Origin: Bradymonadia bacterium
Lineage (GTDB): Bacteria; Myxococcota_A; Bradymonadia; UBA7976; UBA1532
DNA: 64,000 nt
Reading direction: 5' to 3'
Assembly: GCA_046290225.1 (NCBI GenBank)
Contig: JBKAGE010000070.1
Location: 160,001-224,000 of the forward strand
A program made the position numbers and the translations under genes. The notes under the pieces are model-generated. The model was given only the letters and a program-made list of their open reading frames with translations. It ran no database searches and was not told the DNA's origin. Shown piece after piece: positions 5,223 to 41,309 of this stretch; the stretch's first letter is position 1; each line of letters starts with the position of its first letter.

Positions 5223-6545
5223 TCACGGCATGGGCGGCGCGGCGACGTCCAGCTGAAGCCACGTGAAGTCACACAGCTGCACAACTGCACCTTCGACGAG
5301 GGGCAACGTCGCAGTGAGGGTGTAGCGGCCCTCGGGCACAGGGGCATTGCAATCGGTCTCTACAGCCGACACCCGAGCCCACGGCGAGATCGTCGACGCC
5401 CCCTGAGGATCGAGGCTCACCGTTTTGGGCATGCCCGTGCGCTCACAGGGGCCTGCCATACACACATCGTACGGATCGTGCCCTTCGGGCAGCCCTGCCC
5501 AGAGCGCCTCGCCGGCAGGACACTGATCGACGACGTCGAAGCTCAAGGGCTGCTCAGTGTAGTTGCGGCCCTCCAGGCTGATGCCGGCGGTGCGGTTCGC
5601 GAACCTCTCCTGGTTGATACACACACCACTCCTCAGGTCAGGCCAGGCACCCCCTATGGCGAAGACGCCCACGTCACACACACGGTCTCCTGGAGCGTCG
5701 CAACGAGGTGCCACTGGCGGCACGCTGCAGCCCTCTTGACCGGTGACGCATACCCCTGAGACGGGATCAGCGAAGGCCACCTCTTCACCACACACCAGCT
5801 CAGCACAACAGGCCTCGTTCACCGACTCTCCCGTGGGGCTGACGCACACACCTTCACGGCGCCATGCCCCAGCACAGGCGGCCTCTGCGCGGCAATCAGT
5901 CGGTTCGAAGCAACCCGGATCAGGCACACAGCCCTGCTCAGGGTCGAACCTGCCATTGCCGCAATCACAGGCGAAGGTGCAGTCCTCAGCGCAGTCTCCT
6001 TCCACCCCTTCGGCCCAGGTGCCGCAGCTCTTGGGGCCGCACGCGATCACCCAGCGGCCACGGGTGCCCTCGCACAGCGCCTGGGCGCCCTGCTCGAAGC
6101 AGGCCCCGGCCCGCATGGGTGTGTGAAACGCCGTGATTGCGGCGCAGCGGTTGGGCCACGTGGCGCAGAGCGTGCCGCACACGGGCTCGTCGACGCCGAG
6201 CAGCCGGTCGTCGGGCACACACTCACCGTCCATACAGACATAGCACTCGTCGCACAGTGTCTCCTCACAGGGATCCCCAGGCGGTGTCGCGTCGGGCACC
6301 TCGGCATCGGACTCGCCCATGCCCGGACCAGGGTCAGCATCAACCGCCTCAGGGCTCGCATCTGGTCGGGGCAGCTCATCACGTGAAGGCGCGAAGGCAT
6401 CGCTCGGCTCTGATTCGGTCCCTGCGTCGAAGAGCACCGAGCGTCCGCCATTGGGGCGCATGGGATCATCCTGATCCCGAGTGCGGCTGGACTCTGAACA
6501 TCCGAGACAGGTGAAGCACGATAGAAAGATCAGGTAGAGGCGCAT
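5223..6545 (-). CDS. Cysteine-rich lipoprotein
   Basis: Lipobox (MRLYLIFLSCFTCLGC), PDA/DAG acidic tether, then many Cys-rich modules. Confidence 0.8.
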   Translation of the reverse strand: MRLYLIFLSCFTCLGCSESSRTRDQDDPMRPNGGRSVLFDAGTESEPSDAFAPSRDELPRPDASPEAVDADPGPGMGESDAEVPDATPPGDPCEETLCDECYVCMDGECVPDDRLLGVDEPVCGTLCATWPNRCAAITAFHTPMRAGACFEQGAQALCEGTRGRWVIACGPKSCGTWAEGVEGDCAEDCTFACDCGNGRFDPEQGCVPDPGCFEPTDCRAEAACAGAWRREGVCVSPTGESVNEACCAELVCGEEVAFADPVSGVCVTGQEGCSVPPVAPRCDAPGDRVCDVGVFAIGGAWPDLRSGVCINQERFANRTAGISLEGRNYTEQPLSFDVVDQCPAGEALWAGLPEGHDPYDVCMAGPCERTGMPKTVSLDPQGASTISPWARVSAVETDCNAPVPEGRYTLTATLPLVEGAVVQLCDFTWLQLDVAAPPMP

Positions 6546-30430: not shown

Positions 30431-33400
30431 TCATCGCACCTGAAGCGACATCCACCCCACCATCAACCCTCGCAGCCCGGCGGCGAGAGCCGAGAGCCCC
30501 CCAGCGACCTCCACACCAGTGCGTAGATCCCACACGGTCGGCGGCTCGTCGCTGATCTCACGTACGACGACAGCCTCGTCATCGGGCTCAGTGTCAGTGG
30601 CTTCCCTCACCAGGAAATCCCATGTGCCCGATTCACCCGTGATGCGGTGTAGACCCATCTCGCCTCTGAGGCACGTGGCCGCAGACACACCCATCACATG
30701 GATCGCCTTCTCGTGCGGATGGGTGATCTCGTGACCTTCACCATGGGCCCACGCCTGAAGACCCTCGATGTATTGCGTGCAGTCAGTCTGCGCTTCGGGA
30801 TGCAACGCGATGACTTCCAATGTGATCTCATCCTGTCGCGGCAGCGCCGCGAGGCAGAGGGACCATTCGAGCGTCATCAATGATGACATCATCTCCTGTG
30901 CACCGCTGACATCGACCTCAGATGCCTCGCCCAGTCGATCCACGACAGCGCTCAAGGCATTCAACTCATCGAGCAGCGGTGAGCCACTCGACCGGAAGCC
31001 GCGGATCAACGCGCTCTCCATCCAACCCTGTAGACGACCACGCACTGCCACGAGATGCCGGCGCCACAGATGCTCATGGGTGAGCACGGGCTCGGTGAGG
31101 CGCAGCGCCTGGCTGCCCACAGCACCGCTGCGATCGCCCACAGCCTTGTCGGTGACCACCTCGACGCGGCCATCGTGCACGTACAATTCGAAGGCGTCGC
31201 CTTGTACGCCCTGACGCAAGGCCAGCCGGCGAGACAATGGGATCAACAGACGCTGCTCGATGGCCCGCTTCATCGGGCGAGCCCCATAGCGGGGGTCGAA
31301 GCCGTGCACCATGAGCAGATCGAGCACAGCATCGTCGTAGGTCACCGTGATCTCACGCCGGGTGAGCCCCTCGCGCTTGAGGGCCTTGTCGAGCATGAGG
31401 CGGGCGATGTGGGCCACTGAGGGGGCGTCGAGGCTGCCGAAGGGTACGAGGTGATCGATGCGGTTGAGGAACTCGGGCCGGAAGAACGCCCGGGCGGCTT
31501 CGAGGTAGCGACCATCATCCCCCCCATCGCCAGTGTTGATGCCGATGGCGCGCTTCTTCGTGGCCCCGAGGTTGCTCGTGAGGATCACGATGGCGTGGCG
31601 CAGCGAGGCGGTACGCCCTGTGCCGTCGGTGATGCGGCCTTCGCCAAGGGCCTGGAGCAGCAAGTCGAAGACCCCTGGCTCAGCTTTCTCCACCTCGTCG
31701 AGCAACAACACGCAGAAGGGCTGCTCTCGCAGCTTTCGGGTCAGCTCCCCTTCCCCGCGGGCACCTCCGACGAGTCGGGCGGCGCTGCCAGGGTAGCCGT
31801 ATTCGCTCATGTCGAAGCGCACGAGCCGATCGCGATCGCCGAACAGATACTCGGCGAGGGTGAGGGCCGACTCGGTCTTCCCCACCCCTGTGGGTCCGGC
31901 GAAGAGGAACGAGCCCAGCGGCTTTTGCGGATCGTTGAGCCCCGCCTTGATGACCGAGACCAGGTGCACCATACGGTCGATGACCAGGGGCTGACCGATG
32001 ATCCGCTCGGTGAAGAAGGCCTTCAGGCTCTCAAGATCGAGCAACGCATCAGGATCGACGAGGCCCTTGGGAAACCCGCTCGACCGGGCAAAGGCCTCGA
32101 CGGCGTCTGTTGGCTGTAGTGTCTCCTGACCCAGGCGGGCCATCTGCTCGATGAGGCTCAGCCCCGATCCAGGCAAGCCGCCGATGTCACCGAAACGGGC
32201 GAGCAAATCGAGCGCCCGGGCCAGGGCGGCCTCGGTGAAGGTGGTTTTGTGGGCCTTGGAGAGCACATCGGCCCGATGAGACAGGATCTTGTATGCCCCG
32301 TCAGCGCTCAACGCAGGCAATGTCTGACGTCGCAGGGCCGCCATGAAGGCAGGGTCGAGCTGCTCCGCGAGCACCAGCGTGTCGGGAGTGCATTCCGCGA
32401 GCACGGTGAGCTCACCGGATCGGATGAAGGGAGTGAGGCAGGCGGCGACGGTCATCCCCCCCTGACTGCCGGCCATCATCAACTCGAGGGGGTTGTCGAC
32501 GTACAGCACGCCCAGACGGGACTGCACCGCCCGGATGACCTGCAGGCAACGCTCCTGCCACTCACCGAGGTATTGCATGCCAGCGACGATGCGGCTGCCG
32601 GTGACGTGCCACACGGGCACCTCGGTGAGGGGCCCAGGTACGTTGAGATCACGGGCGATACGATGACACGCCTCGTGGATCACCGCGGTCTTGCCCGAGC
32701 CTGATGGGCCCACGAGGACCATGCTCCGAGGCCGGCCGCCGCCGAGAGTGCCCAGCAGCTGATCTACAGCGTCGTCCCGCAGTTGGGCGCGGGGCAGTCG
32801 ATCATGGCGGGCCTCTTCGGTGAGATCGATGCCCACCTCTGCCAGGGCCTGCTCGTCACTGCGACCCCAGAAGAAGCCAAAGGGAGAATCATCGCCCTCA
32901 TCGTTGCCTTGCCGCGTGCCCTTCAGTCGGTTCTTGCGAGATCTCTTGCTGCCCCCCCGGAGCACCTTGCCGGAGAAGTTCACGTCGAGGGGCTCGATGC
33001 GCTCGCCCCGCTCGTACTGATAGCTGAGCAGCTCGTCCACGGGATCGAGGTGGAAGAAGTCCCGCACCACCTCCTCGGCCCAGGGCACGATGTTCTCGCG
33101 GCCCACGATGCGGAACTGAATGCCGAGGCGGGGCAACGAGATCTCGAAGGTCTCCGGAGCCCCGGGTGGCAGATCTTCTGGATCGATGGGGCGCTCGAGC
33201 ATGGTCAGCCGCATGGGCACGGTGATGAGGCGGCCCTGCTGCACCGCCCGCAGCTCCACCTCGAGAGCCCGGCGAACCAGCTTGGGGAACGCGAACACAC
33301 CGCGGGCGGCGATACGACCTTCGGCGAGCTCGTGGGAGAGCACCTCGGCGAGCTGGGCCTTCACGGCGTTGAGATCAGGGCCGAAGGCGGCGTACTCCCG

Positions 33401-33472
33401 GTGGGTGAGCACCACGGCGGTGAACCAGTCATTGCGGTGCTGCCGAATGAAGAGCTGAAACTGTTGCTGCAT
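30431..33472 (-). CDS. ClpA/ClpB-like double AAA+ ATPase, paralogue C, with release-factor-like C-terminal domain
   Basis: GPSGSGKT and GPTGVGKT Walker A; LLLDEVEKA; FRPEFLNRID; YGARP. Start MQQQF overlaps the upstream stop (TGATG). Confidence 0.9.
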   Translation of the reverse strand: MQQQFQLFIRQHRNDWFTAVVLTHREYAAFGPDLNAVKAQLAEVLSHELAEGRIAARGVFAFPKLVRRALEVELRAVQQGRLITVPMRLTMLERPIDPEDLPPGAPETFEISLPRLGIQFRIVGRENIVPWAEEVVRDFFHLDPVDELLSYQYERGERIEPLDVNFSGKVLRGGSKRSRKNRLKGTRQGNDEGDDSPFGFFWGRSDEQALAEVGIDLTEEARHDRLPRAQLRDDAVDQLLGTLGGGRPRSMVLVGPSGSGKTAVIHEACHRIARDLNVPGPLTEVPVWHVTGSRIVAGMQYLGEWQERCLQVIRAVQSRLGVLYVDNPLELMMAGSQGGMTVAACLTPFIRSGELTVLAECTPDTLVLAEQLDPAFMAALRRQTLPALSADGAYKILSHRADVLSKAHKTTFTEAALARALDLLARFGDIGGLPGSGLSLIEQMARLGQETLQPTDAVEAFARSSGFPKGLVDPDALLDLESLKAFFTERIIGQPLVIDRMVHLVSVIKAGLNDPQKPLGSFLFAGPTGVGKTESALTLAEYLFGDRDRLVRFDMSEYGYPGSAARLVGGARGEGELTRKLREQPFCVLLLDEVEKAEPGVFDLLLQALGEGRITDGTGRTASLRHAIVILTSNLGATKKRAIGINTGDGGDDGRYLEAARAFFRPEFLNRIDHLVPFGSLDAPSVAHIARLMLDKALKREGLTRREITVTYDDAVLDLLMVHGFDPRYGARPMKRAIEQRLLIPLSRRLALRQGVQGDAFELYVHDGRVEVVTDKAVGDRSGAVGSQALRLTEPVLTHEHLWRRHLVAVRGRLQGWMESALIRGFRSSGSPLLDELNALSAVVDRLGEASEVDVSGAQEMMSSLMTLEWSLCLAALPRQDEITLEVIALHPEAQTDCTQYIEGLQAWAHGEGHEITHPHEKAIHVMGVSAATCLRGEMGLHRITGESGTWDFLVREATDTEPDDEAVVVREISDEPPTVWDLRTGVEVAGGLSALAAGLRGLMVGWMSLQVR

Positions 33473-36400
33473 CACGCCCCCTCCCGGGCCAGGGCCCACA
33501 GCCTGCGCCGCACAATGCTGCTCAACGCGGCGGGCTCGCCCATCGGCTGACCGGTGAGCGGATCGACGGCGTCGGCGGTGTAGCGCCGACAGATGGACAG
33601 CCGCGGTCGCGGGTGCTCGCTCACGTCTTGCCCGGCCCGGCGCGCGTCCCGCCACGTATCCCACGCCGTGTCGAGGGCGTTGAGCTGTGTCGAGGCCTCG
33701 GGCCAGAAACACGCCATGGCATCGCCATCATGGATGGCGACGACCTCGACCCGGGCGAGGAAGATGTGCAGATCAGGCCCTGAGTATTTCAGCTGCACAT
33801 GAAAGCCGAGATCAGTGGCCATCACCTCGGCCATGCCCTTGCCTCGGACCCACAGGGCCGCTCCAGTGACCCCCTTGCGCTGATAGTTGTCGTGGCCACT
33901 CTGGAAGCGCTCACCATCACCTCGACCCCAACCCTTCCCTTCGACCTTGAGGCATCCCTGTACCGAAGTGGCGAGACCGGACCATGCATCTCGCAGCCCC
34001 TCGGCCACCTGCAGAGTCCACGCGGCGGACTGCGGATCTTCCGTGGCGGGGAGCAGCCGTACGAGGTAGCCCCGCTCCGCCTCGTCGGCGACGTCGATCT
34101 GCCACCGCAGCAGGCTGTGAGACAGCTCGAGCGCGTCTAGGGCCTGCAAGGCCCGCTCGAAGAGCAGGCGGTTGCGATCGACGGCCACGGGCATCTCGAT
34201 GTCCGCGGCGATGGGTTTGTTGTGGGTGGGGTTGTCGTTGCGCAACAGACGATTCGACAAGCCCCGATTCTGATCGTCGATGACGTTGACGAAGTCGTAG
34301 CGCGACAACCACGCCTCGGCGAAGTCGTCTACTTGCTGGGTCAGGTCACCGACCTCTCGCAGGCTGAAGCTCAGGCTCTCGAGCTCCGCGAGGGCCTCGA
34401 CGCTCAAGGCGGGCCCTTCCCCAGTCTCGGCGCGGTTGTACTGCTCGAGCAACGCGCCGCGGCGGGTGAGCTGTCGCTGATGCCATTCGTCGGCCCCGAT
34501 GGCGGCGACGAAGCCCACGAGCTGTTGATGACGCAGCTCGAGCTCGGGCCAGCGCTCGATGGTGTAGTCGGGCAACGCCTCTGCCTGGGGCTCGTCGAGG
34601 GCCCAGACTTCCATACCAATGGCCTCACCTTCGCGGTACAGCTCCACGAGGGTGGTGCGGTTCGAGGGCTGGGCCACCAGGTGAGCCGCAAGAGGTACCG
34701 TGAGACGCTGCTCGAGGGCTCGCTTGAGCGAGCGGGCGCCATAGCGAGGGTCGAAGCCCTGATCGATGAGCAGCTCGACGAGGGCGGGCTCCACGGTGAC
34801 CCTCACTCCGCTCCGGCGCAGGCCACGGCGGTTGATGATCTGCAGCAATGTGCGCTGCACCAGCGGGCCCATGTCGTCACGGTTGAGCGTACGAAAGGGC
34901 ACCACCCGGTCGATCCGGTTGAAGAACTCGGGGCGGAAGAAGCCCTCGGCGGCCTTGCGGTAGTGGATCGCCTCCTGAGCGACGCCGTCGCCGGGGGTGC
35001 TGAACCCCAATGGGCTCTGCGCACCTCGAACCCCGAGGTTGGAGGTCATGATCAAGATGGTGTTGCTGAAGTCGGTGGTGCGGCCCGCGGCGTTGGTGAG
35101 CCGGCCCTCGCCAAAGACCTGCAAGAAGGCGTCGAAGACCTGCGGGTGGGCCTTCTCGATCTCGTCGAAGAGCACCACGCTGAAGGGCTGCCGCGCCACC
35201 TGACGGGTGAGCTCGCCTTCGGGCTGCCAGCGATCACCAAACAGCCGCGACATGGCCATGGGGCTCTGGAACTCGCTCATGTCGAAACGCACGAGGCGGT
35301 CGCTGGTGCCGAAGAGGTACTCCGCGAGGGCTTTGGCAGTCTCGGTCTTGCCCACCCCCGTGGGCCCCACGAAGAGCAGGGTGGCCAGTGGGCGCTGAGG
35401 ATCATTGATGCCCTGTTGCATCAACGTGACCACCTCGGTGGCGGTGGTGCTCGCCGCCTGCTGTCCCACGATGCGCTCGCTGAAGTGGGCCTGCACCTCT
35501 CGGGCCTTGGGGGCCCGGCCCGCCCAGAGCACGAAGTCGGGCAGACCGGTCTCTCGAGCGTAGAAGCTCACCAGGGTCTTCTCTCCGAGCACCCGGCGGC
35601 CCCGCTCGTTCCTCGGGGCGAGCTTGCCATGATGGGCGCCGGCGAAGCGGGTCATCAAATCGACGGCCTTACCGGGGTGACACTGATGGGGGGCGAAGCG
35701 GCGGGTGAGGGCCAGCACCCCCTCGAGGACCTCGGGGGTGATGGTGATCGCCTGCTCGGCTTCGAGGTTGCGCACGGTGCCCACGAGCACACCGAGGGTG
35801 TCTCGCTCGTCCATGGGAGGCACCTGGATGATGTGCAACCGGGCGAAGAAGCCCGGGGCCTCCCGGCGGGTGGCCTCAAGGCGAGCGGGGGTGCACTCTC
35901 CGAGCAGCCGGATCTCCCCCTGGGCGAGGTGGGGCTCCAGGAAGCTGGCCACGTGGGTGTCGGACTTCGCCGAGCGCCCGGTGAAGACCAGGGTGGGCAG
36001 ATCATCCACGTACAAGATGTCCTGCCGGGCGGAGAGCTCGTGCACCATGGCCTGCACCCGAGCCTCCCAGGCCCCCACCACGCTCATGCCGGCGATGATG
36101 CGGTTGCCGTCTACAGCCCAGAGATCAGTTCGCTGCTCGATGGGCAGCTCGAGGGCGGCGAGGCGTCGGGCCACCTCGTGCACGATGGCGGTCTTCCCGC
36201 AGCCCCTGGGGCCCACGAGCAACACCCCACGGCCGGGGCGCTCGAGCTGCTCCATCACCTGCTGCACGATGGCGTCGCGGCCGAAGGCGCGGTTCAAACG
36301 GCCGTCTTTTGCCCGGTGGATCAGGTTGGCCCCCACGGTCTTGAGGGTCACCGGAGGCACGAGGCGCCGCTTCTCTTTGGGCTTGAGGGTCTTCTTCTTG

Positions 36401-36972
36401 CCCTTGGGGCCTTTCTTCTTGGGCTTTTTCTTCTTCTTTTTGAGCGGCGTCTCCGGGAGCACCGTGGGCAGCTCTGCCTCCACCTCGAGGATCTCGAGGT
36501 GGCTGGCCCCCTCCACCATGACGCTGTCGAGGTCGTAGAGATCGAGTCGATGGCGGGCGAGCCAGTCCATCAAGTGACGCTCGAGGGCCACCTTGAGGGT
36601 GGCGGTGCTCTCCACGGCGAAGGCGTCGAGGCCACCGCGCAGGTGCGGCACGCGGGCCACGTAGAGCGACTCTTTGGGCCACCGGGTGAGCACCACGTCG
36701 AACCAGCCCACCCACTCTTCGGGGCCATGCACGCGCTTGTCGGGGGTCAGGTGCACCTTCACCCGCCGCAGCTGGATGTCGGGGCACAAGGCATAACGCC
36801 ACATGCGGGCGGCGTCCTCCTGGGGCACCGTCTCCATCAGGTGCAGGGCCACGTCGTCGAGCAGCTCTGCGAGGCTGGTGCCCCGAAACACCCGAGTCGA
36901 GATGCCCGGCAGCCTGATCTCGGCCATCTCACGCTTGTCGATGGTGACCATCACCGGTACGGGCAGAATCAT
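33472..36972 (-). CDS. ClpA/ClpB-like double AAA+ ATPase, paralogue B
   Basis: GPRGCGKT, GPTGVGKT, LFDEIEKAHP, FRPEFFNRID; Lys-rich linker; ATGA overlap with the upstream gene. Confidence 0.9.
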   Translation of the reverse strand: MILPVPVMVTIDKREMAEIRLPGISTRVFRGTSLAELLDDVALHLMETVPQEDAARMWRYALCPDIQLRRVKVHLTPDKRVHGPEEWVGWFDVVLTRWPKESLYVARVPHLRGGLDAFAVESTATLKVALERHLMDWLARHRLDLYDLDSVMVEGASHLEILEVEAELPTVLPETPLKKKKKKPKKKGPKGKKKTLKPKEKRRLVPPVTLKTVGANLIHRAKDGRLNRAFGRDAIVQQVMEQLERPGRGVLLVGPRGCGKTAIVHEVARRLAALELPIEQRTDLWAVDGNRIIAGMSVVGAWEARVQAMVHELSARQDILYVDDLPTLVFTGRSAKSDTHVASFLEPHLAQGEIRLLGECTPARLEATRREAPGFFARLHIIQVPPMDERDTLGVLVGTVRNLEAEQAITITPEVLEGVLALTRRFAPHQCHPGKAVDLMTRFAGAHHGKLAPRNERGRRVLGEKTLVSFYARETGLPDFVLWAGRAPKAREVQAHFSERIVGQQAASTTATEVVTLMQQGINDPQRPLATLLFVGPTGVGKTETAKALAEYLFGTSDRLVRFDMSEFQSPMAMSRLFGDRWQPEGELTRQVARQPFSVVLFDEIEKAHPQVFDAFLQVFGEGRLTNAAGRTTDFSNTILIMTSNLGVRGAQSPLGFSTPGDGVAQEAIHYRKAAEGFFRPEFFNRIDRVVPFRTLNRDDMGPLVQRTLLQIINRRGLRRSGVRVTVEPALVELLIDQGFDPRYGARSLKRALEQRLTVPLAAHLVAQPSNRTTLVELYREGEAIGMEVWALDEPQAEALPDYTIERWPELELRHQQLVGFVAAIGADEWHQRQLTRRGALLEQYNRAETGEGPALSVEALAELESLSFSLREVGDLTQQVDDFAEAWLSRYDFVNVIDDQNRGLSNRLLRNDNPTHNKPIAADIEMPVAVDRNRLLFERALQALDALELSHSLLRWQIDVADEAERGYLVRLLPATEDPQSAAWTLQVAEGLRDAWSGLATSVQGCLKVEGKGWGRGDGERFQSGHDNYQRKGVTGAALWVRGKGMAEVMATDLGFHVQLKYSGPDLHIFLARVEVVAIHDGDAMACFWPEASTQLNALDTAWDTWRDARRAGQDVSEHPRPRLSICRRYTADAVDPLTGQPMGEPAALSSIVRRRLWALAREGA

Positions 36973-39900
36973 GCCTGACCCTCCTCATACTCGATGGTGG
37001 GCGCCTGTCGTTTGAAGAGCGGGTGAGCCCCATGGCCAAAGACCACCTCATAGACGGTGGCTTGCAAGGCCCGGTGCCACAAACGATGCAGCCGAGGCTC
37101 GTAGGCCTGCTGTAGATCGATGGCCACGTCGTCGATGATCCACCGCGCCTCGTTGATCACCCGCCGTCGCGCCGAAGGCCACAAGGTGTCGAGCCGCCGG
37201 TGCTCGATGATGCCCTTTTGATCGGTGTAGAGCACCTGGGCCCCAGCGGGCTTGCCATGATCGCGGATCCAGTCGTGGGCCCCAGTCTCAGCGCTGAGCA
37301 GACACACGTGGGGCCCGGTGATCTTGATGGCGATGGGGCGCCGACCGTCACCGTCGATCATGTGTTTGACCCATTGCTCCATCTGACGGTGCTGTTGCCG
37401 GGTGAGCTCGGCGTCGTCCACAGGGATCGAGGGGCCCTCGAAGCTCTTGGGGTGAGTCCAGATCAGTGGGGCCTTGTCTTTGCTCGCCTCGAGGGCCTCA
37501 GCCTCTTCTCGGGCGCGGATCTGCGCCTCGGTCTCGGCCTCTTCGCCCTGCTCTTCCCTGGCGTGCTCCTCAGCCTTCGCGCGCTTTTTGGCCTTGGCTT
37601 TCTGGCGTCGGGTGAGCTGTGGTGCCTCCTTTGGGGGCGTCCAGTGCGGATCGACGTCGAGCACGTAGCCCTTCAGCGTCCAGCCGAAACGCGCCGCCAG
37701 GCGCAGGTAGATGCCGAGCAGTTTGGCCACCAGCGGCCACTCCCCCTTGGCCCCTTTGAGATACAGCACCCCAGCCTCGGGGCTGTCGAAGCGACGGTCG
37801 TACAGGTCGAGCTCCAGGGCATCGAGCTGCTCAATGGTCTCTCTGAGCTCCGGTGCCAGCAGCGCCACCCCATCAGCGCGCCGATCGTAGAGCTGCTCGT
37901 AGGCGAGCTCTTCGAGGGCCTCAATGCGGCCAGTGAGCGTGTCGAACCCCGCGAGCACCACCCGATCGGGCTCGAGCCCCCTGGTCAAAGCGTTGGCCCG
38001 CTCGGTGTCAGTCCAGAAATGCTTCTCTTGTGAGAGGCGATCCATGAGCCGCAGGTGCCGACGGCGACTCTCGGCGAGGGGGCTCTTGCGCCACCGAAGC
38101 ACCTGATCTCGGATGATGCCGATCTCGCCGACGAGGCCCAACAGCGCCTTGCGCACGCCGGCCTCAGAAGCCGCCTTGCTGCTGTCAGCCCTGCTGAAGG
38201 CCAGGCGCTCGCTGTCTTCTTCGTCGATCTGCACCTGAATGAGCTGATGCTCCACGGCGCCCTGCTCGGAGAGGGTACGGGCCAGAGGCGCAGTGAGCCG
38301 CTGCTCGATGAGACGCTTGAGCGGTCGAGCGCCATAACGGGGCTCCACCCCACGCTCGGCGAGCCACTGCTTCACCGCCTCGGGCACGTCGATGACCACG
38401 CCACGCTGCCGCAGCCCCTCTCGCCGGGCGAGCTTCACCAGCTCTCGCTCGGTGATGCGATCGATGGCCGGCGCCTCAAGGGGGTTGAAGGGCACCACGT
38501 GATCGATGCGGTTGAACAGCTCGGGGCGGAAGAACCGCTCGGCCTCGCTGCGGAAGTGAGCCTCGAAGTTGGCCCGAGTGGCTTCGGCGCCGCCAAAGCC
38601 CAGCCCTCCCTTGAAGGTCTCCACTCCGAGGTTGCTGGTCATGATGACCACGGCGTTGCAGAAGCTCGCCGTACGCCCTGCGGCGTCGGTGAGGCGGGCC
38701 TCGCCGAGCAGCTGCAACAGCACATCGAAGACCGCAGGGTGAGCCTTCTCGATCTCGTCGAGCAACAGCACGCAGAAGGGCTGCTGCCTGATCTCGCTGA
38801 TGAGACGGCCTTCCTCGTCGCCGGCGCCGATGAACCGGTGCACGCTGCTCGGCGCGGCGAACTCGCTCATGTCAAAGCGCACCATGCGATCGTCGCTGCC
38901 GAACAGGCACTCCGCGAGGGCCTTAGCGGTCTCTGTCTTGCCCACACCTGTGGGGCCCACGAAGAGGAACGAGCCCAGAGGCTTGTTCAGATCGGAAAGC
39001 CCCGCCTTCATCACTGCCACGAGATCAGCCATGCGTCGCACAGCACCGCTCTGGCCGATGATGCGCTGCCGGAACAGCCGCAGAATCTCCTCGGTGTCGA
39101 GGGGCAAATCGTCGCGGATCAAGAACTCGGGCATGCCCGTCTCGACGCAGAACCGGGTCACCACCTCGCCACGGCCGAGAGTGACGGAGGGCAGCTCGAT
39201 CTTGCCCTCGGCGTCGGGCACCACCTCTGCAGCCCGGCGGCCGTCGGCCTCGTCCACGAGGCGCCTCAGGAAATGCAGCGCTGTACCCAGGGCGCTGGCG
39301 TCGCCACGGAACCGTGCACAGAGGCCTTCGATGGCCGAGAGCCCCGGGGCGCTCACGGTGATGTCGTAGTCACGGGCCAGCTCTGCGGCCACAGCTTCGA
39401 GGATCCGCCGCGCCGCAGCAGGCTCGGGCTCCTCGAGCTGCCACGGGGAAAACATGCGGGCGAAGCCGGCGTCGCGCAGCTCCAGCTTCGTCCAGGACTG
39501 TGGGGTGCACTCCCCCACGAGGGTGATGCGACCTCCGGCGAGGTGAGGCTTGAGCATCAGGGCCACGTTCTGATCGGAGTGGGCCGACCGCCCGGCATCG
39601 AGCAAAGCCAGCGGATCGCCCACGTACCAGATGACCTCGGCGTCGCTGCACTCTTGCAAGATGTCGAGGCACTGCTGCTGCCAGCCCCCGAACCCTCCTT
39701 CACCGGCAATGAGGCGGCTGGCGTCGACGAACCACACCGGACGCGTGCGGATCTTCGCAGGGGTCTTCTTACGCACGATGCGCTGTACGAGGGCGTTGAG
39801 CACCGCGGTCTTACCCACCCCTGAGGGGCCCACCACCACAACAGAGGTGCCCCCGGCGGCGGTGAGGCGGCGGAACAGGTCTTCCACCTCATCAGTACGG

Positions 39901-40628
39901 CCGTGGGCCTGCTCGAGGTGGCCATCCTTCGCCTGACGGCTCAGGTTCACGCCGATGCGCTTGAAGGTGGGCGTCGGCGGACGCTTCTTCTTGCCCTTCG
40001 GCGCGTCCGGATCTTTGTCCTCGTCTTCTTCGTCTTTGTCTTCATCAGGGGGCGCCGGCGCAGGGAGCATGGCCGCCCCACACAGCTTGCCTGTGAAGGC
40101 CATGGGCGAGGCCACCTCCACCTCGAGCTCGAGCAACTCGAGGCGTTCTTCCCCGAGCCAGCGCAGATCGAGCCGCTCACTTGGGGTCGCGTGGGACAAC
40201 GTGGACTTCATCATGTCTTCCACGGCGGCCTGCAGGACCTCTTCGCCTTCTTTGATCTTCGCCCGGGGCACCCACTGCCGTGTGCCCCACCGGATGGCCC
40301 ACAGCTGGAGATAACGTCGATCCCGAGAGGTGAGCACCGAGACCCGGGTGGTGTGATGCTCCAAGTCGTCCGCACCGTGGATCGGCAGCGCCTCGGGCAG
40401 CTCGACCGGCAACAGCTGCAAATCGGTGGGGGTGACGTAACGCCACAGACGCCCTGGGTGTGTGCGTTCGAGCCGGTCGGTGAGCATGAGCGCCAGCTCT
40501 TCACGGCCGGCGTCGATGTCGGGGGTATAGACACACAGCTCCGGCTCACCGACGACCTGCAGGGTGAAGCAGCCATTGGGGTGCTCGTGAACCAGGAGCT
40601 GGACGCTGAACTGCACAGGACCTCCCAC
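36969..40628 (-). CDS. ClpA/ClpB-like double AAA+ ATPase, paralogue A
   Basis: GPSGVGKT, GPTGVGKT, LLDEIEKAHP, FRPELFNRID, YGARPLKR. An alternative GTG start lies at 40616. Confidence 0.9.
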   Translation of the reverse strand: MGGPVQFSVQLLVHEHPNGCFTLQVVGEPELCVYTPDIDAGREELALMLTDRLERTHPGRLWRYVTPTDLQLLPVELPEALPIHGADDLEHHTTRVSVLTSRDRRYLQLWAIRWGTRQWVPRAKIKEGEEVLQAAVEDMMKSTLSHATPSERLDLRWLGEERLELLELEVEVASPMAFTGKLCGAAMLPAPAPPDEDKDEEDEDKDPDAPKGKKKRPPTPTFKRIGVNLSRQAKDGHLEQAHGRTDEVEDLFRRLTAAGGTSVVVVGPSGVGKTAVLNALVQRIVRKKTPAKIRTRPVWFVDASRLIAGEGGFGGWQQQCLDILQECSDAEVIWYVGDPLALLDAGRSAHSDQNVALMLKPHLAGGRITLVGECTPQSWTKLELRDAGFARMFSPWQLEEPEPAAARRILEAVAAELARDYDITVSAPGLSAIEGLCARFRGDASALGTALHFLRRLVDEADGRRAAEVVPDAEGKIELPSVTLGRGEVVTRFCVETGMPEFLIRDDLPLDTEEILRLFRQRIIGQSGAVRRMADLVAVMKAGLSDLNKPLGSFLFVGPTGVGKTETAKALAECLFGSDDRMVRFDMSEFAAPSSVHRFIGAGDEEGRLISEIRQQPFCVLLLDEIEKAHPAVFDVLLQLLGEARLTDAAGRTASFCNAVVIMTSNLGVETFKGGLGFGGAEATRANFEAHFRSEAERFFRPELFNRIDHVVPFNPLEAPAIDRITERELVKLARREGLRQRGVVIDVPEAVKQWLAERGVEPRYGARPLKRLIEQRLTAPLARTLSEQGAVEHQLIQVQIDEEDSERLAFSRADSSKAASEAGVRKALLGLVGEIGIIRDQVLRWRKSPLAESRRRHLRLMDRLSQEKHFWTDTERANALTRGLEPDRVVLAGFDTLTGRIEALEELAYEQLYDRRADGVALLAPELRETIEQLDALELDLYDRRFDSPEAGVLYLKGAKGEWPLVAKLLGIYLRLAARFGWTLKGYVLDVDPHWTPPKEAPQLTRRQKAKAKKRAKAEEHAREEQGEEAETEAQIRAREEAEALEASKDKAPLIWTHPKSFEGPSIPVDDAELTRQQHRQMEQWVKHMIDGDGRRPIAIKITGPHVCLLSAETGAHDWIRDHGKPAGAQVLYTDQKGIIEHRRLDTLWPSARRRVINEARWIIDDVAIDLQQAYEPRLHRLWHRALQATVYEVVFGHGAHPLFKRQAPTIEYEEGQA

Positions 40629-40766: not shown

Positions 40767-41309
40767 ATGCCATTCTCACTTCGTGGTCGCGTCGCGGTGA
40801 TCGACGCCGACATCACCACGCTTGAACTCGACGCCATCGTCAATGCCGCCAACAGCGCACTCCTCGGCGGTGGCGGGGTCGACGGGGCGATCCACCGCAA
40901 GGCGGGCCGTGGTCTGCTCGCCGAGTGTCGTCCGCTCAACGGGTGCCCTCCGGGGCAAGCGCGCATCACAGGTGGGCACAACCTGCCCGTGAAGCACATC
41001 ATTCATGCAGTCGGGCCCATCTGGCGTGGTGGCAACCAGGGTGAATCCACCACCCTGGCCGCCTGCTACACCAACAGCCTCAAGCTCTGCGAGCAGTATG
41101 ACTGCGAGACCGTGGCATTCCCGGGCATCAGCACCGGTGTCTATCGGTTCCCCATGGAGAAGGCCGCCTCCATCGCTGCAGAGACAGTGCTGCAGTGGCT
41201 CGAACACCACGAGCAGCCTCGCCACGTGACCTTCTGTGCATTTGGCTTCAAAGCAAAAAAGATCATGGCCGAAGCCCTCGAGGCTGCCCTCATGGCCCGA
41301 GACATGTAA
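40767..41309 (+). CDS. Macrodomain protein (O-acetyl-ADP-ribose deacetylase, YmdB-like)
   Basis: DIT, DAIVNAANSALLGGGGVDGAIH, IHAVGP and AFPGISTGVYRFP motifs. Confidence 0.94.
   Translation: MPFSLRGRVAVIDADITTLELDAIVNAANSALLGGGGVDGAIHRKAGRGLLAECRPLNGCPPGQARITGGHNLPVKHIIHAVGPIWRGGNQGESTTLAACYTNSLKLCEQYDCETVAFPGISTGVYRFPMEKAASIAAETVLQWLEHHEQPRHVTFCAFGFKAKKIMAEALEAALMARDM

Follow-up and report, generated by a model that had tools for sequence, protein, structure and literature searches.

The known routes of bacterial ribosome rescue rely on factors that release or tag the peptide: transfer-messenger RNA, ArfA/B, PrfH, and ribosome-associated quality control. Here, we describe three adjacent genes, A, B, and C, from a Bradymonadia bacterium, which lie in a 64,000-nucleotide (nt) stretch of DNA (GenBank assembly GCA_046290225.1, contig JBKAGE010000070.1, positions 160,001 to 224,000 of the forward strand; hereafter, the window, with positions counted from its first letter). 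They encode Clp-type double AAA+ ATPases, and the C-terminal tails of all three derive from class-1 release factors (RFs), closest to RF2.

The tails share with RF2 (PrfB; PCRF PF03462 plus RF-1 PF00472; TIGR00020) the domain-1 arm and the domain-2/4 superdomain, in the same order and with the same fold. RF2 ranks first in proteome searches with profiles of A and of a related solitary clade (E), in a Foldseek search with tail B, and in a search of PDB with the A-tail profile. Unlike RF2, the tails have no GGQ domain, SPF/RRHT loop, or GG tip of helix 5, are fused behind a Clp double ring, and carry insertions in A and B. With ClpA/ClpC (TIGR02639), the trio shares the tandem D1-D2 core, the D2 small domain, the position of an IGF-like loop, and the lack of a ClpB middle domain; in contrast to ClpA/ClpC, it has no Clp N domain, D1 catalytic Glu, or GYVG loop and has putative HicB-like repeats, an RF-like tail, and three paralogs per operon. 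Read from its translations, the trio falls outside RF1/RF2, as GGQ and the codon loop are missing, and outside ClpA/B, as the family cut-offs are not reached and the D1 activity motifs and the pore loop are missing.

Two further groups are comparable. PrfH and the ArfA/BrfA-RF2 rescue systems also make codon-independent use of the RF domain-2/4 body, and PrfH is among the top structural matches of tail B; however, these systems keep GGQ, release the peptide, and carry no ATPase. Dom34/Pelota and Vms1-Cdc48, from eukaryotic and archaeal ribosome rescue, resemble the trio in working logic only, with an RF relative that is either noncatalytic (Dom34) or linked to an AAA+ ATPase (Vms1), as outlined in the main text of a survey of release-factor diversity (PMC6514570); they differ in that their aeRF1 fold is unrelated and their ATPase is a separate protein, with no fused Clp ring. 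That main text (Burroughs and Aravind 2019) contains no occurrence of “Clp” or “PCRF.” We found no description of a Clp-RF fusion or operon in the literature covered by our search, which leaves out most subscription journals; an unrelated Clp fusion is mentioned in PMC8195603. In JGI, one automatic name is “ClpA/protein subunit release factor B”; NCBI names are generic.

Three coupled Clp ATPases with RF2-like tails

The products of A, B, and C are translationally coupled Clp/Hsp100 class I ATPases with the layout of that class, two tandem AAA+ modules and a D2 small domain. Pfam detects AAA_2 and ClpB_D2-small in each of them and nothing significant in the N-terminal 210 to 220 amino acids (aa) or the C-terminal 235 to 420 aa. 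The features are as follows, with domain coordinates calculated by hand from the translations.

36969..40616, reverse strand: gene A, 1215 aa, Clp-type double AAA+ ATPase with an RF2-like tail
40095..40616, reverse strand: A N-terminal domain, two HicB/UPF0150-like repeats (moderate support), homologous in all subunit types
38238..39965, reverse strand: A AAA+ core, with D1 lacking the catalytic Glu of Walker B and D2 keeping its motor motifs and an IGF-like loop but not the GYVG pore loop
37794..38102, reverse strand: A helical arm like RF2 domain 1, with the FW-x-D motif (hhalign 98%; PDB profile)
37044..37781, reverse strand: A RF domains 2/4 without the GGQ domain and the SPF loop
~37332 to 37664, reverse strand: charged insertion of ~110 aa in the domain-2 loop of A
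33472..36972, reverse strand: gene B, 1166 aa, start codon overlapping the stop codon of gene A
36451..36972, reverse strand: B N-terminal domain, HicB-like repeats in tandem (hhalign 96% for the internal repeat)
34666..36345, reverse strand: B AAA+ modules, D1 degenerate and D2 with intact motor motifs
34093..34551, reverse strand: B helical domain-1-like arm, remodeled, with the FW motif lost and a beta-hairpin inserted (residues 29 to 181 of an AlphaFold2 model)
33475..34077, reverse strand: B RF domains 2/4, with one helix (~33637 to 33708) predicted by the model in place of domain 3
30431..33475, reverse strand: gene C, 1014 aa, start overlapping the stop codon of gene B
32951..33472, reverse strand: C N-terminal HicB-like domain (hhalign 99% to the A and E N-termini)
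31205..32845, reverse strand: C AAA+ modules, D1 degenerate and D2 with intact motor motifs
30434..31066, reverse strand: C tail, with shortened domain-1-like helices to ~30842 and minimal RF domains 2/4 from ~30829

Gene A starts at a GTG codon at 40616, with GGAGG 5 nt upstream; the start given by the open reading frame (ORF) finder is 40628, and the database protein has 1215 aa. The ORF finder extends gene C to 33712.

Profiles and a structure model trace the tails to RF2

A preliminary description of the window had proposed, from the translations, that the three tails resemble the RF1/RF2 core and lack the GGQ domain. The RF-like motifs that it quoted are found in the translations of A, B, and C where it placed them, in RF order, and GGQ, SPF, and PxT are absent from the equivalent position of each tail. 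The extent of the module was underestimated: the motifs were placed correctly, but the start lies further upstream, at ~38100 in A, ~34550 in B, and ~31070 in C, the domain-1 region having been overlooked.

The likeness of the tails to RFs exceeds chance and is visible only when relatives are included. Pfam PCRF, the search that the preliminary description had suggested, matches none of the three window tails, and the C tail gives no BLASTP match to the genome’s own RF2 (E = 1.6). Since the window tails are too diverged for Pfam or BLAST, we collected relatives from related genomes, 150 representatives, and 80 GTDB loci; the latter are the best 80 of the 672 loci encoding relatives among at least 714 pattern matches and are biased toward B-like matches. 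Besides A, B, and C types, these relatives include the solitary clades D and E. Among 14 tails from related genomes, 8 match PCRF at E < 0.01, 6 of them above the curated cut-off; the positives are A-type and solitary D-type tails, with none of four B-type tails and not the single C-type tail among them. A word-index homolog search with tail A yielded only two proteins.

Profile searches recover RFs specifically. When a hidden Markov model (HMM) of 13 A-type tails was run against the genome’s 49,885 ORFs, the top non-self matches were RF2 (E = 1e-9) and RF1 (5e-6). A 44-row A-tail profile gave 28 matches at E ≤ 0.001 among PDB sequences, all 28 of them RF1/RF2. An HMM of the solitary clade closest to RF2, clade E, retrieved from the whole proteome only RF2, RF1, A (4e-8), and C (9e-8), and with a slightly larger alignment also B, weakly (0.016). 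By hhalign, the A tail matches an RF2 profile with a probability of 98% and a score of 115 (reversed control, 25; 15 shuffled controls, ≤18), the B tail with 54 to 94%, depending on profile depth, and a score of 41 to 61 (controls, ≤17), and the C tail with 82 to 90% and a score of 45.5 (reversed, 17; shuffled, ≤19). RF2 outscored RF1 in eight of eight comparisons.

For tail B, searches with sequence profiles do not suffice. A B-tail profile matched coiled coils among PDB sequences and no RF significantly (RF2 at E = 7.7), and wider B-clade profiles alone did not retrieve RF1/RF2 from the proteome, a 149-tail profile finding only a PrfH-like ORF (0.0097). An AlphaFold2 model of tail B, built from 73 rows of the B clade only, had a predicted local distance difference test (pLDDT) score of 88.4 and a predicted template modeling (pTM) score of 0.84. 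With this model, Foldseek returned 32 matches at E ≤ 0.001, which are release factors throughout among the matches listed, the best being RF2 (E = 1.1e-7). VIA-align against 48,161 chains placed RF2, RF1, mtRF1, and PrfH at ranks 1 to 4 (Z = 11.3, 10.5, 10.4, and 10.3), aligning 140 residues with mtRF1 at 3.6 Å (model residues 187 to 387) and 124 residues with PrfH at 2.8 Å. A designed helical bundle follows closely at Z = 10.2; the RF rows, however, cover the beta-sheet domain. The homology claim of the preliminary description is borne out in full, the tails being domains 2/4 of RF2 origin from which the GGQ domain has been removed, together with a domain-1 region.

The domain-2/4 superdomain is recognized in B by the structure model, in A by profile, and in C by profile only. 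A single-sequence AlphaFold2 model of tail C was poor (pLDDT of 53.5), gave no Foldseek match at E ≤ 0.001 and only generic helical bundles in VIA-align, and is uninformative either way. In a quick tail tree, C tails form their own clade (Shimodaira-Hasegawa–like approximate likelihood ratio test, 99), a placement that speaks against their recent replacement by an A or B tail. Support for the deep branches of this tree is weak, and the tree does not group the tails with RF2 in preference to RF1. The genome has intact genes for RF1 and RF2 in other places, together with a PrfH-like gene and a single ClpP.

RF elements kept and lost in the tails

The tails keep the domain-1 arm, the domain-2 sheet with helix 5, the E-x-G-x-H motif, and the strand, hairpin, and last helix of domain 4. 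The arm is clear in A, where it includes FW-x-D, remodeled in B, and shortened in C. They have lost domain 3, and GGQ with it, as well as the SPF/RRHT recognition loop and the GG at the tip of helix 5. The view of the preliminary description that the module is noncatalytic is borne out by the tail-B model, since domain 3 is replaced there by a single helix (residues 310 to 333). The string GGQ occurs in 7 of 241 family tails; in the six that were read, it lies outside the domain-3 position. Among 44 A tails drawn from several phyla, four positions never vary and five others are conserved in at least 90%; at least six of these nine belong to the RF core (the Tyr of helix 5, the strand Gly, the E-x-G-x-H motif, and the Arg of domain 4). 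The RF core residues of A tails are under purifying selection.

Motor core and N-terminal domains

Motor motifs were counted in 162 family cores. In D1, the Walker A Lys is kept in 159 of the 162, the catalytic Walker B Glu in only 4, and Arg at the two finger positions in 17 and 18. In D2, the Walker A Lys, the Walker B Asp-Glu, the arginine finger, and the sensor-2 Arg are present in all 162. In the window proteins and the relatives aligned with them, a deletion has removed the D2 GYVG pore loop; the pattern occurs in one core of the 162, at an unchecked position, and in the ClpA control. A loop at the position of the ClpA IGF loop has its Gly in 160 cores and Phe (138) or Leu (21) in 159; window C has Ile. 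The NCBIfam ClpA model scores the trio at 291 to 341 bits (cut-off, 993) and the ClpB model at 320 to 366 bits (cut-off, 1232), below both thresholds. According to published work on ClpX, the GYVG loop grips the substrate and IGF loops dock on ClpP (PMC7112952); in ClpA, D2 is described as the stronger ATPase, with D2 pore loops mattering most in unfolding (PMC8666677). Because D1 is degenerate, D2 is intact, GYVG is lost, and the IGF-like loop is kept, we infer from these precedents that the trio forms a one-motor ring that probably docks on ClpP but may be unable to thread substrates as ClpA does. With GYVG gone, a remodeling stroke seems more likely than processive threading of the ClpA kind.

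The usual Clp N domain is replaced by a domain that is homologous across all subunit types. It contains an ~80-aa tandem repeat, which hhalign detects at 96 to 98% in two of five groups and not in the other three. The repeats resemble, weakly but consistently, the HicB antitoxin/UPF0150 fold, a likeness with moderate support. In support of it, all five HicB-family ORFs rank in the top five of 178, and three of five PDB matches are HicB or TTHA1756, at E = 0.07 to 0.6. Pfam HicB matches 1 of 40 family members (2.9e-5), and the ESM Atlas gave no usable match for two N-terminal domains.

Response of Myxococcus xanthus orthologs to chloramphenicol

The M. xanthus genes MXAN_4823-4825 form a three-gene operon described, in the account available in PMC6617876, only as Clp ATP-binding subunits. 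Strong but indirect evidence identifies them as orthologs of the trio, by synteny: the M. xanthus locus in our set (L118) has sulfate ABC transporter genes upstream of the trio and genes for superoxide dismutase, flavin reductase, and a molybdopterin-binding IorB-like protein downstream, matching MXAN_4818/4819, which are ABC transporters (PMC6617876), and MXAN4829, which is IorB (PMC3222651). The same RNA sequencing study reports that the three genes are up-regulated under chloramphenicol at 8 hours (log2 fold changes of 3.57, 2.67, and 2.61) and in chloramphenicol-adapted cells (1.47, 2.17, and 1.92); 101 of 7,348 genes were up in both conditions (PMC6617876). This induction fits a translation-stress role.

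Distribution and gene order

By record title, the 80 GTDB loci come from Myxococcota (including Myxococcus, Corallococcus, and Archangium), Bradymonadales, Acidobacteriota, Planctomycetota, Verrucomicrobia, Chloroflexota, and a few others. Their gene order is ABC in 44, BCA in 2, AB in 11, BC in 10, B alone in 7, C alone in 3, a solitary E gene in 2, and unclear in 1, with many partial orders being cut by contig or flank ends. Within the phylum, an A tail in a long frame was found in 18 of 201 genomes, with four further matches of RF2 size (11 candidates were scored per genome).

Among 55 complete C genes, 4 have an RF tail, 2 have unexplained extensions, and 49 end ~25 aa after D2; the three-tail state of the window is therefore rare. 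In four genomes, the genes are dispersed and A, B, and C are all still present. The C orthologs of these genomes, with a minimal tail of ~180 aa, are located as follows.

L183, 6006-8939: dispersed C gene
L184, 6147-8957: dispersed C gene
L185, 5601-8444: dispersed C gene
L186, ending at 5806: dispersed C gene

Their tails, of 181 to 184 aa, read as domains 2/4 only, one by a match to the C-tail HMM and three by eye. Together with the separate clade of C tails, this fits an ancestral tail on C with repeated losses.

The most RF2-like tails belong to clade E, a group of solitary genes that includes some from Chloroflexota; to it belong proteins P0035, P0039, P0041, and P0042 and the following genes.

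L151, 6815-10297: solitary clade E gene
L157, 516-4055: solitary clade E gene

Clade E tails match the prfB model at E = 1e-26 and have a near-complete RF2 surface, with FW-x-D, E-x-G-x-HR (12 of 14), and D-x-R-T/S-G (10 of 14). This clade is the best candidate for a homomeric form.

Possible function of the trio

We assign a probability of roughly 0.5 to the reading that the trio forms a heteromeric Clp ring, which codon-blind arms for the A site direct to stalled ribosomes. A, B, and C would likely co-assemble in one heteromeric double ring, a heterohexamer such as (ABC)2, with D2 as its only active motor; a complex prediction for tails A and B scored 0.00 and gave no answer. The preliminary description had suggested that the tails bind the A site or RNA, which would fit their RF architecture with its L11-contacting domain, the purifying selection on RF core residues, and the induction of the M. 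xanthus orthologs by chloramphenicol. In published work on RF2 (PMC5378476), domain 1 touches the L11 stalk, domains 2/4 reach into the decoding center, and SPF is dispensable for stop-codon–independent docking of RF2 with ArfA. A tail arm of the trio would enter a vacant A site without reading a codon, with domain 1 resting on the L11 stalk. Because RF2 domain 1 contacts that stalk and the ring is fused N-terminally, ahead of domain 1, the ring would lie outside, on the factor-binding side of the ribosome. Hydrolysis of ATP by D2 could then remodel or clear the stalled complex or a bound factor, with a possible handover to ClpP via the IGF-like loop.

That all this amounts to a ribosome quality-control pathway not known in bacteria, in which RF2-derived arms of a heterohexameric Clp/ClpP machine probe the A site and D2 dismantles the ribosome or extracts a factor, has slightly less than an even chance. 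If so, bacteria would deal with stalled ribosomes in a new way, by an unfoldase-type motor that is fused to a dead release factor and guided by it, the three-subunit heteromeric Clp ring would be unusual, and Pelota/Cdc48-like logic would have been invented in bacteria from a different release-factor fold, as a functional counterpart of the ATPase-partnered noncatalytic RF paralogs. Even if not ribosomal, the tails would be a rare reuse of the RF2 fold outside termination. The question is directly testable with MXAN_4823-4825 in the nonpathogenic and genetically tractable M. xanthus.

Several observations weigh against ribosome targeting. All codon-reading elements are lost from the tails, and the long charged insertion in the domain-2 loop of A could clash with the 30S subunit. 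In the A, B, and C tail sets, which include close kin and are not independent, the domain-1 FW motif is kept in 8 of 149 B tails, and E-x-G-x-HR is found in 34 of 67 A, 0 of 149 B, and 5 of 6 C tails, B having lost the Arg of GxHR (D-x-R-T/S-G occurs in 13 of 67, 46 of 149, and 1 of 6, respectively). The absence of the tail from most C genes indicates that at least one tail is dispensable, and the missing GYVG loop leaves the mechanical output uncertain. A search for conserved neighbors, in 11 and then 80 loci plus the window, brought up neither a fourth gene nor any gene for translation or RNA repair; what it did find was synteny confined to close relatives and, here and there, genes for sigma-54 activators. 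Upstream of ~45 A genes, no shared leader or attenuator was seen by eye. Last, the expression data come from a single RNA sequencing study of another organism, in which 625 genes were up at 8 hours and the Clp gene MXAN_4832 was up as well (log2 fold change of 1.19; PMC6617876), so general proteotoxic stress could explain the induction.

Part of this evidence would be expected if the RF fold had been exapted as a protein-interaction or regulatory arm of a heteromeric Clp machine that acts on nonribosomal substrates, by remodeling or degradation, with the tails no longer in contact with the ribosome. We consider this unlikely, although it accounts for the loss of all codon-reading residues, the subunit-specific insertions and long branches in the tail tree, the tail-less state of most C genes, and the lack of translation-linked neighbors. 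It does not sit easily with the near-complete RF2 surface of clade E (E = 1e-26 to the prfB model) or with the induction of the M. xanthus orthologs by a ribosome-directed antibiotic.

The preference for a ribosome-directed ring also has to be set against a bait-and-destroy scheme, in which the RF-like tails and HicB-like repeats would be decoys for proteins that target release factors or antitoxins, such as toxins, phage proteins, or ArfA-like factors, and would pass them to ClpP. The resemblance of the N-terminal repeats to HicB/UPF0150, the conserved IGF-like loop, and a patchy distribution (18 of 201 phylum genomes) with fast divergence fit such a scheme. However, the genes are mostly single-copy, keep a stable order across phyla, and have no conserved defense or toxin neighbors; the HicB-like fold is a general small fold, and the match to it is weak. 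Among 2,468 plasmid records, no family member was found in the ten best, and no record covers 80% of B. The scheme is improbable on this evidence, and equally improbable is its corollary that the trio is a conflict or stress-recovery system rather than a ribosome remodeler. Least probable is that an old ClpA-RF2 fusion is decaying and has left the tails as folded appendages that serve no particular partner: the repeated loss of C tails among close relatives and the poor likeness of tails to one another (mean column identity of 20 to 23%) point that way, but A and B tails of 330 to 430 aa with invariant core residues are kept in several phyla, the B tail model folds with high confidence, and a minimal domain-2/4-like C tail persists in a second lineage.

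Adjacent genes and further relatives

A Macro-domain gene (PF01661, above cut-off) lies at 40767-41309 on the forward strand, divergent to gene A; it was not seen as a conserved neighbor in relatives. At two loci (L131, 5840-6778; L133, 5907-6746), a gene that reads by eye like a nucleotidyltransferase lies a few kilobases upstream of an isolated B gene. A PrfH-like RF with GGQ (L026, contig C61, 915-1648, reverse strand) shows PCRF matches in two frames, perhaps reflecting a frameshift, and adjoins a gene that reads by eye like an ADP-ribosylglycohydrolase.

Solitary clade D Clp-RF fusions from the same genome family are found at the following positions.

L016, 932-3712: clade D fusion
L018, 5777-8680: clade D fusion
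L019, 6781-9663: clade D fusion
L020, 5397-9353: clade D fusion
L021, 5480-8551: clade D fusion

These proteins have no HicB-like N-terminus; their tail is clearly PCRF, with part of domain 3 left but no GGQ. A more distant candidate ATPase-RF fusion is a 937-aa ORF (L076, 7854-10667, reverse strand) that matches PCRF at E = 1e-16 and has 20 to 28% identity to the family.

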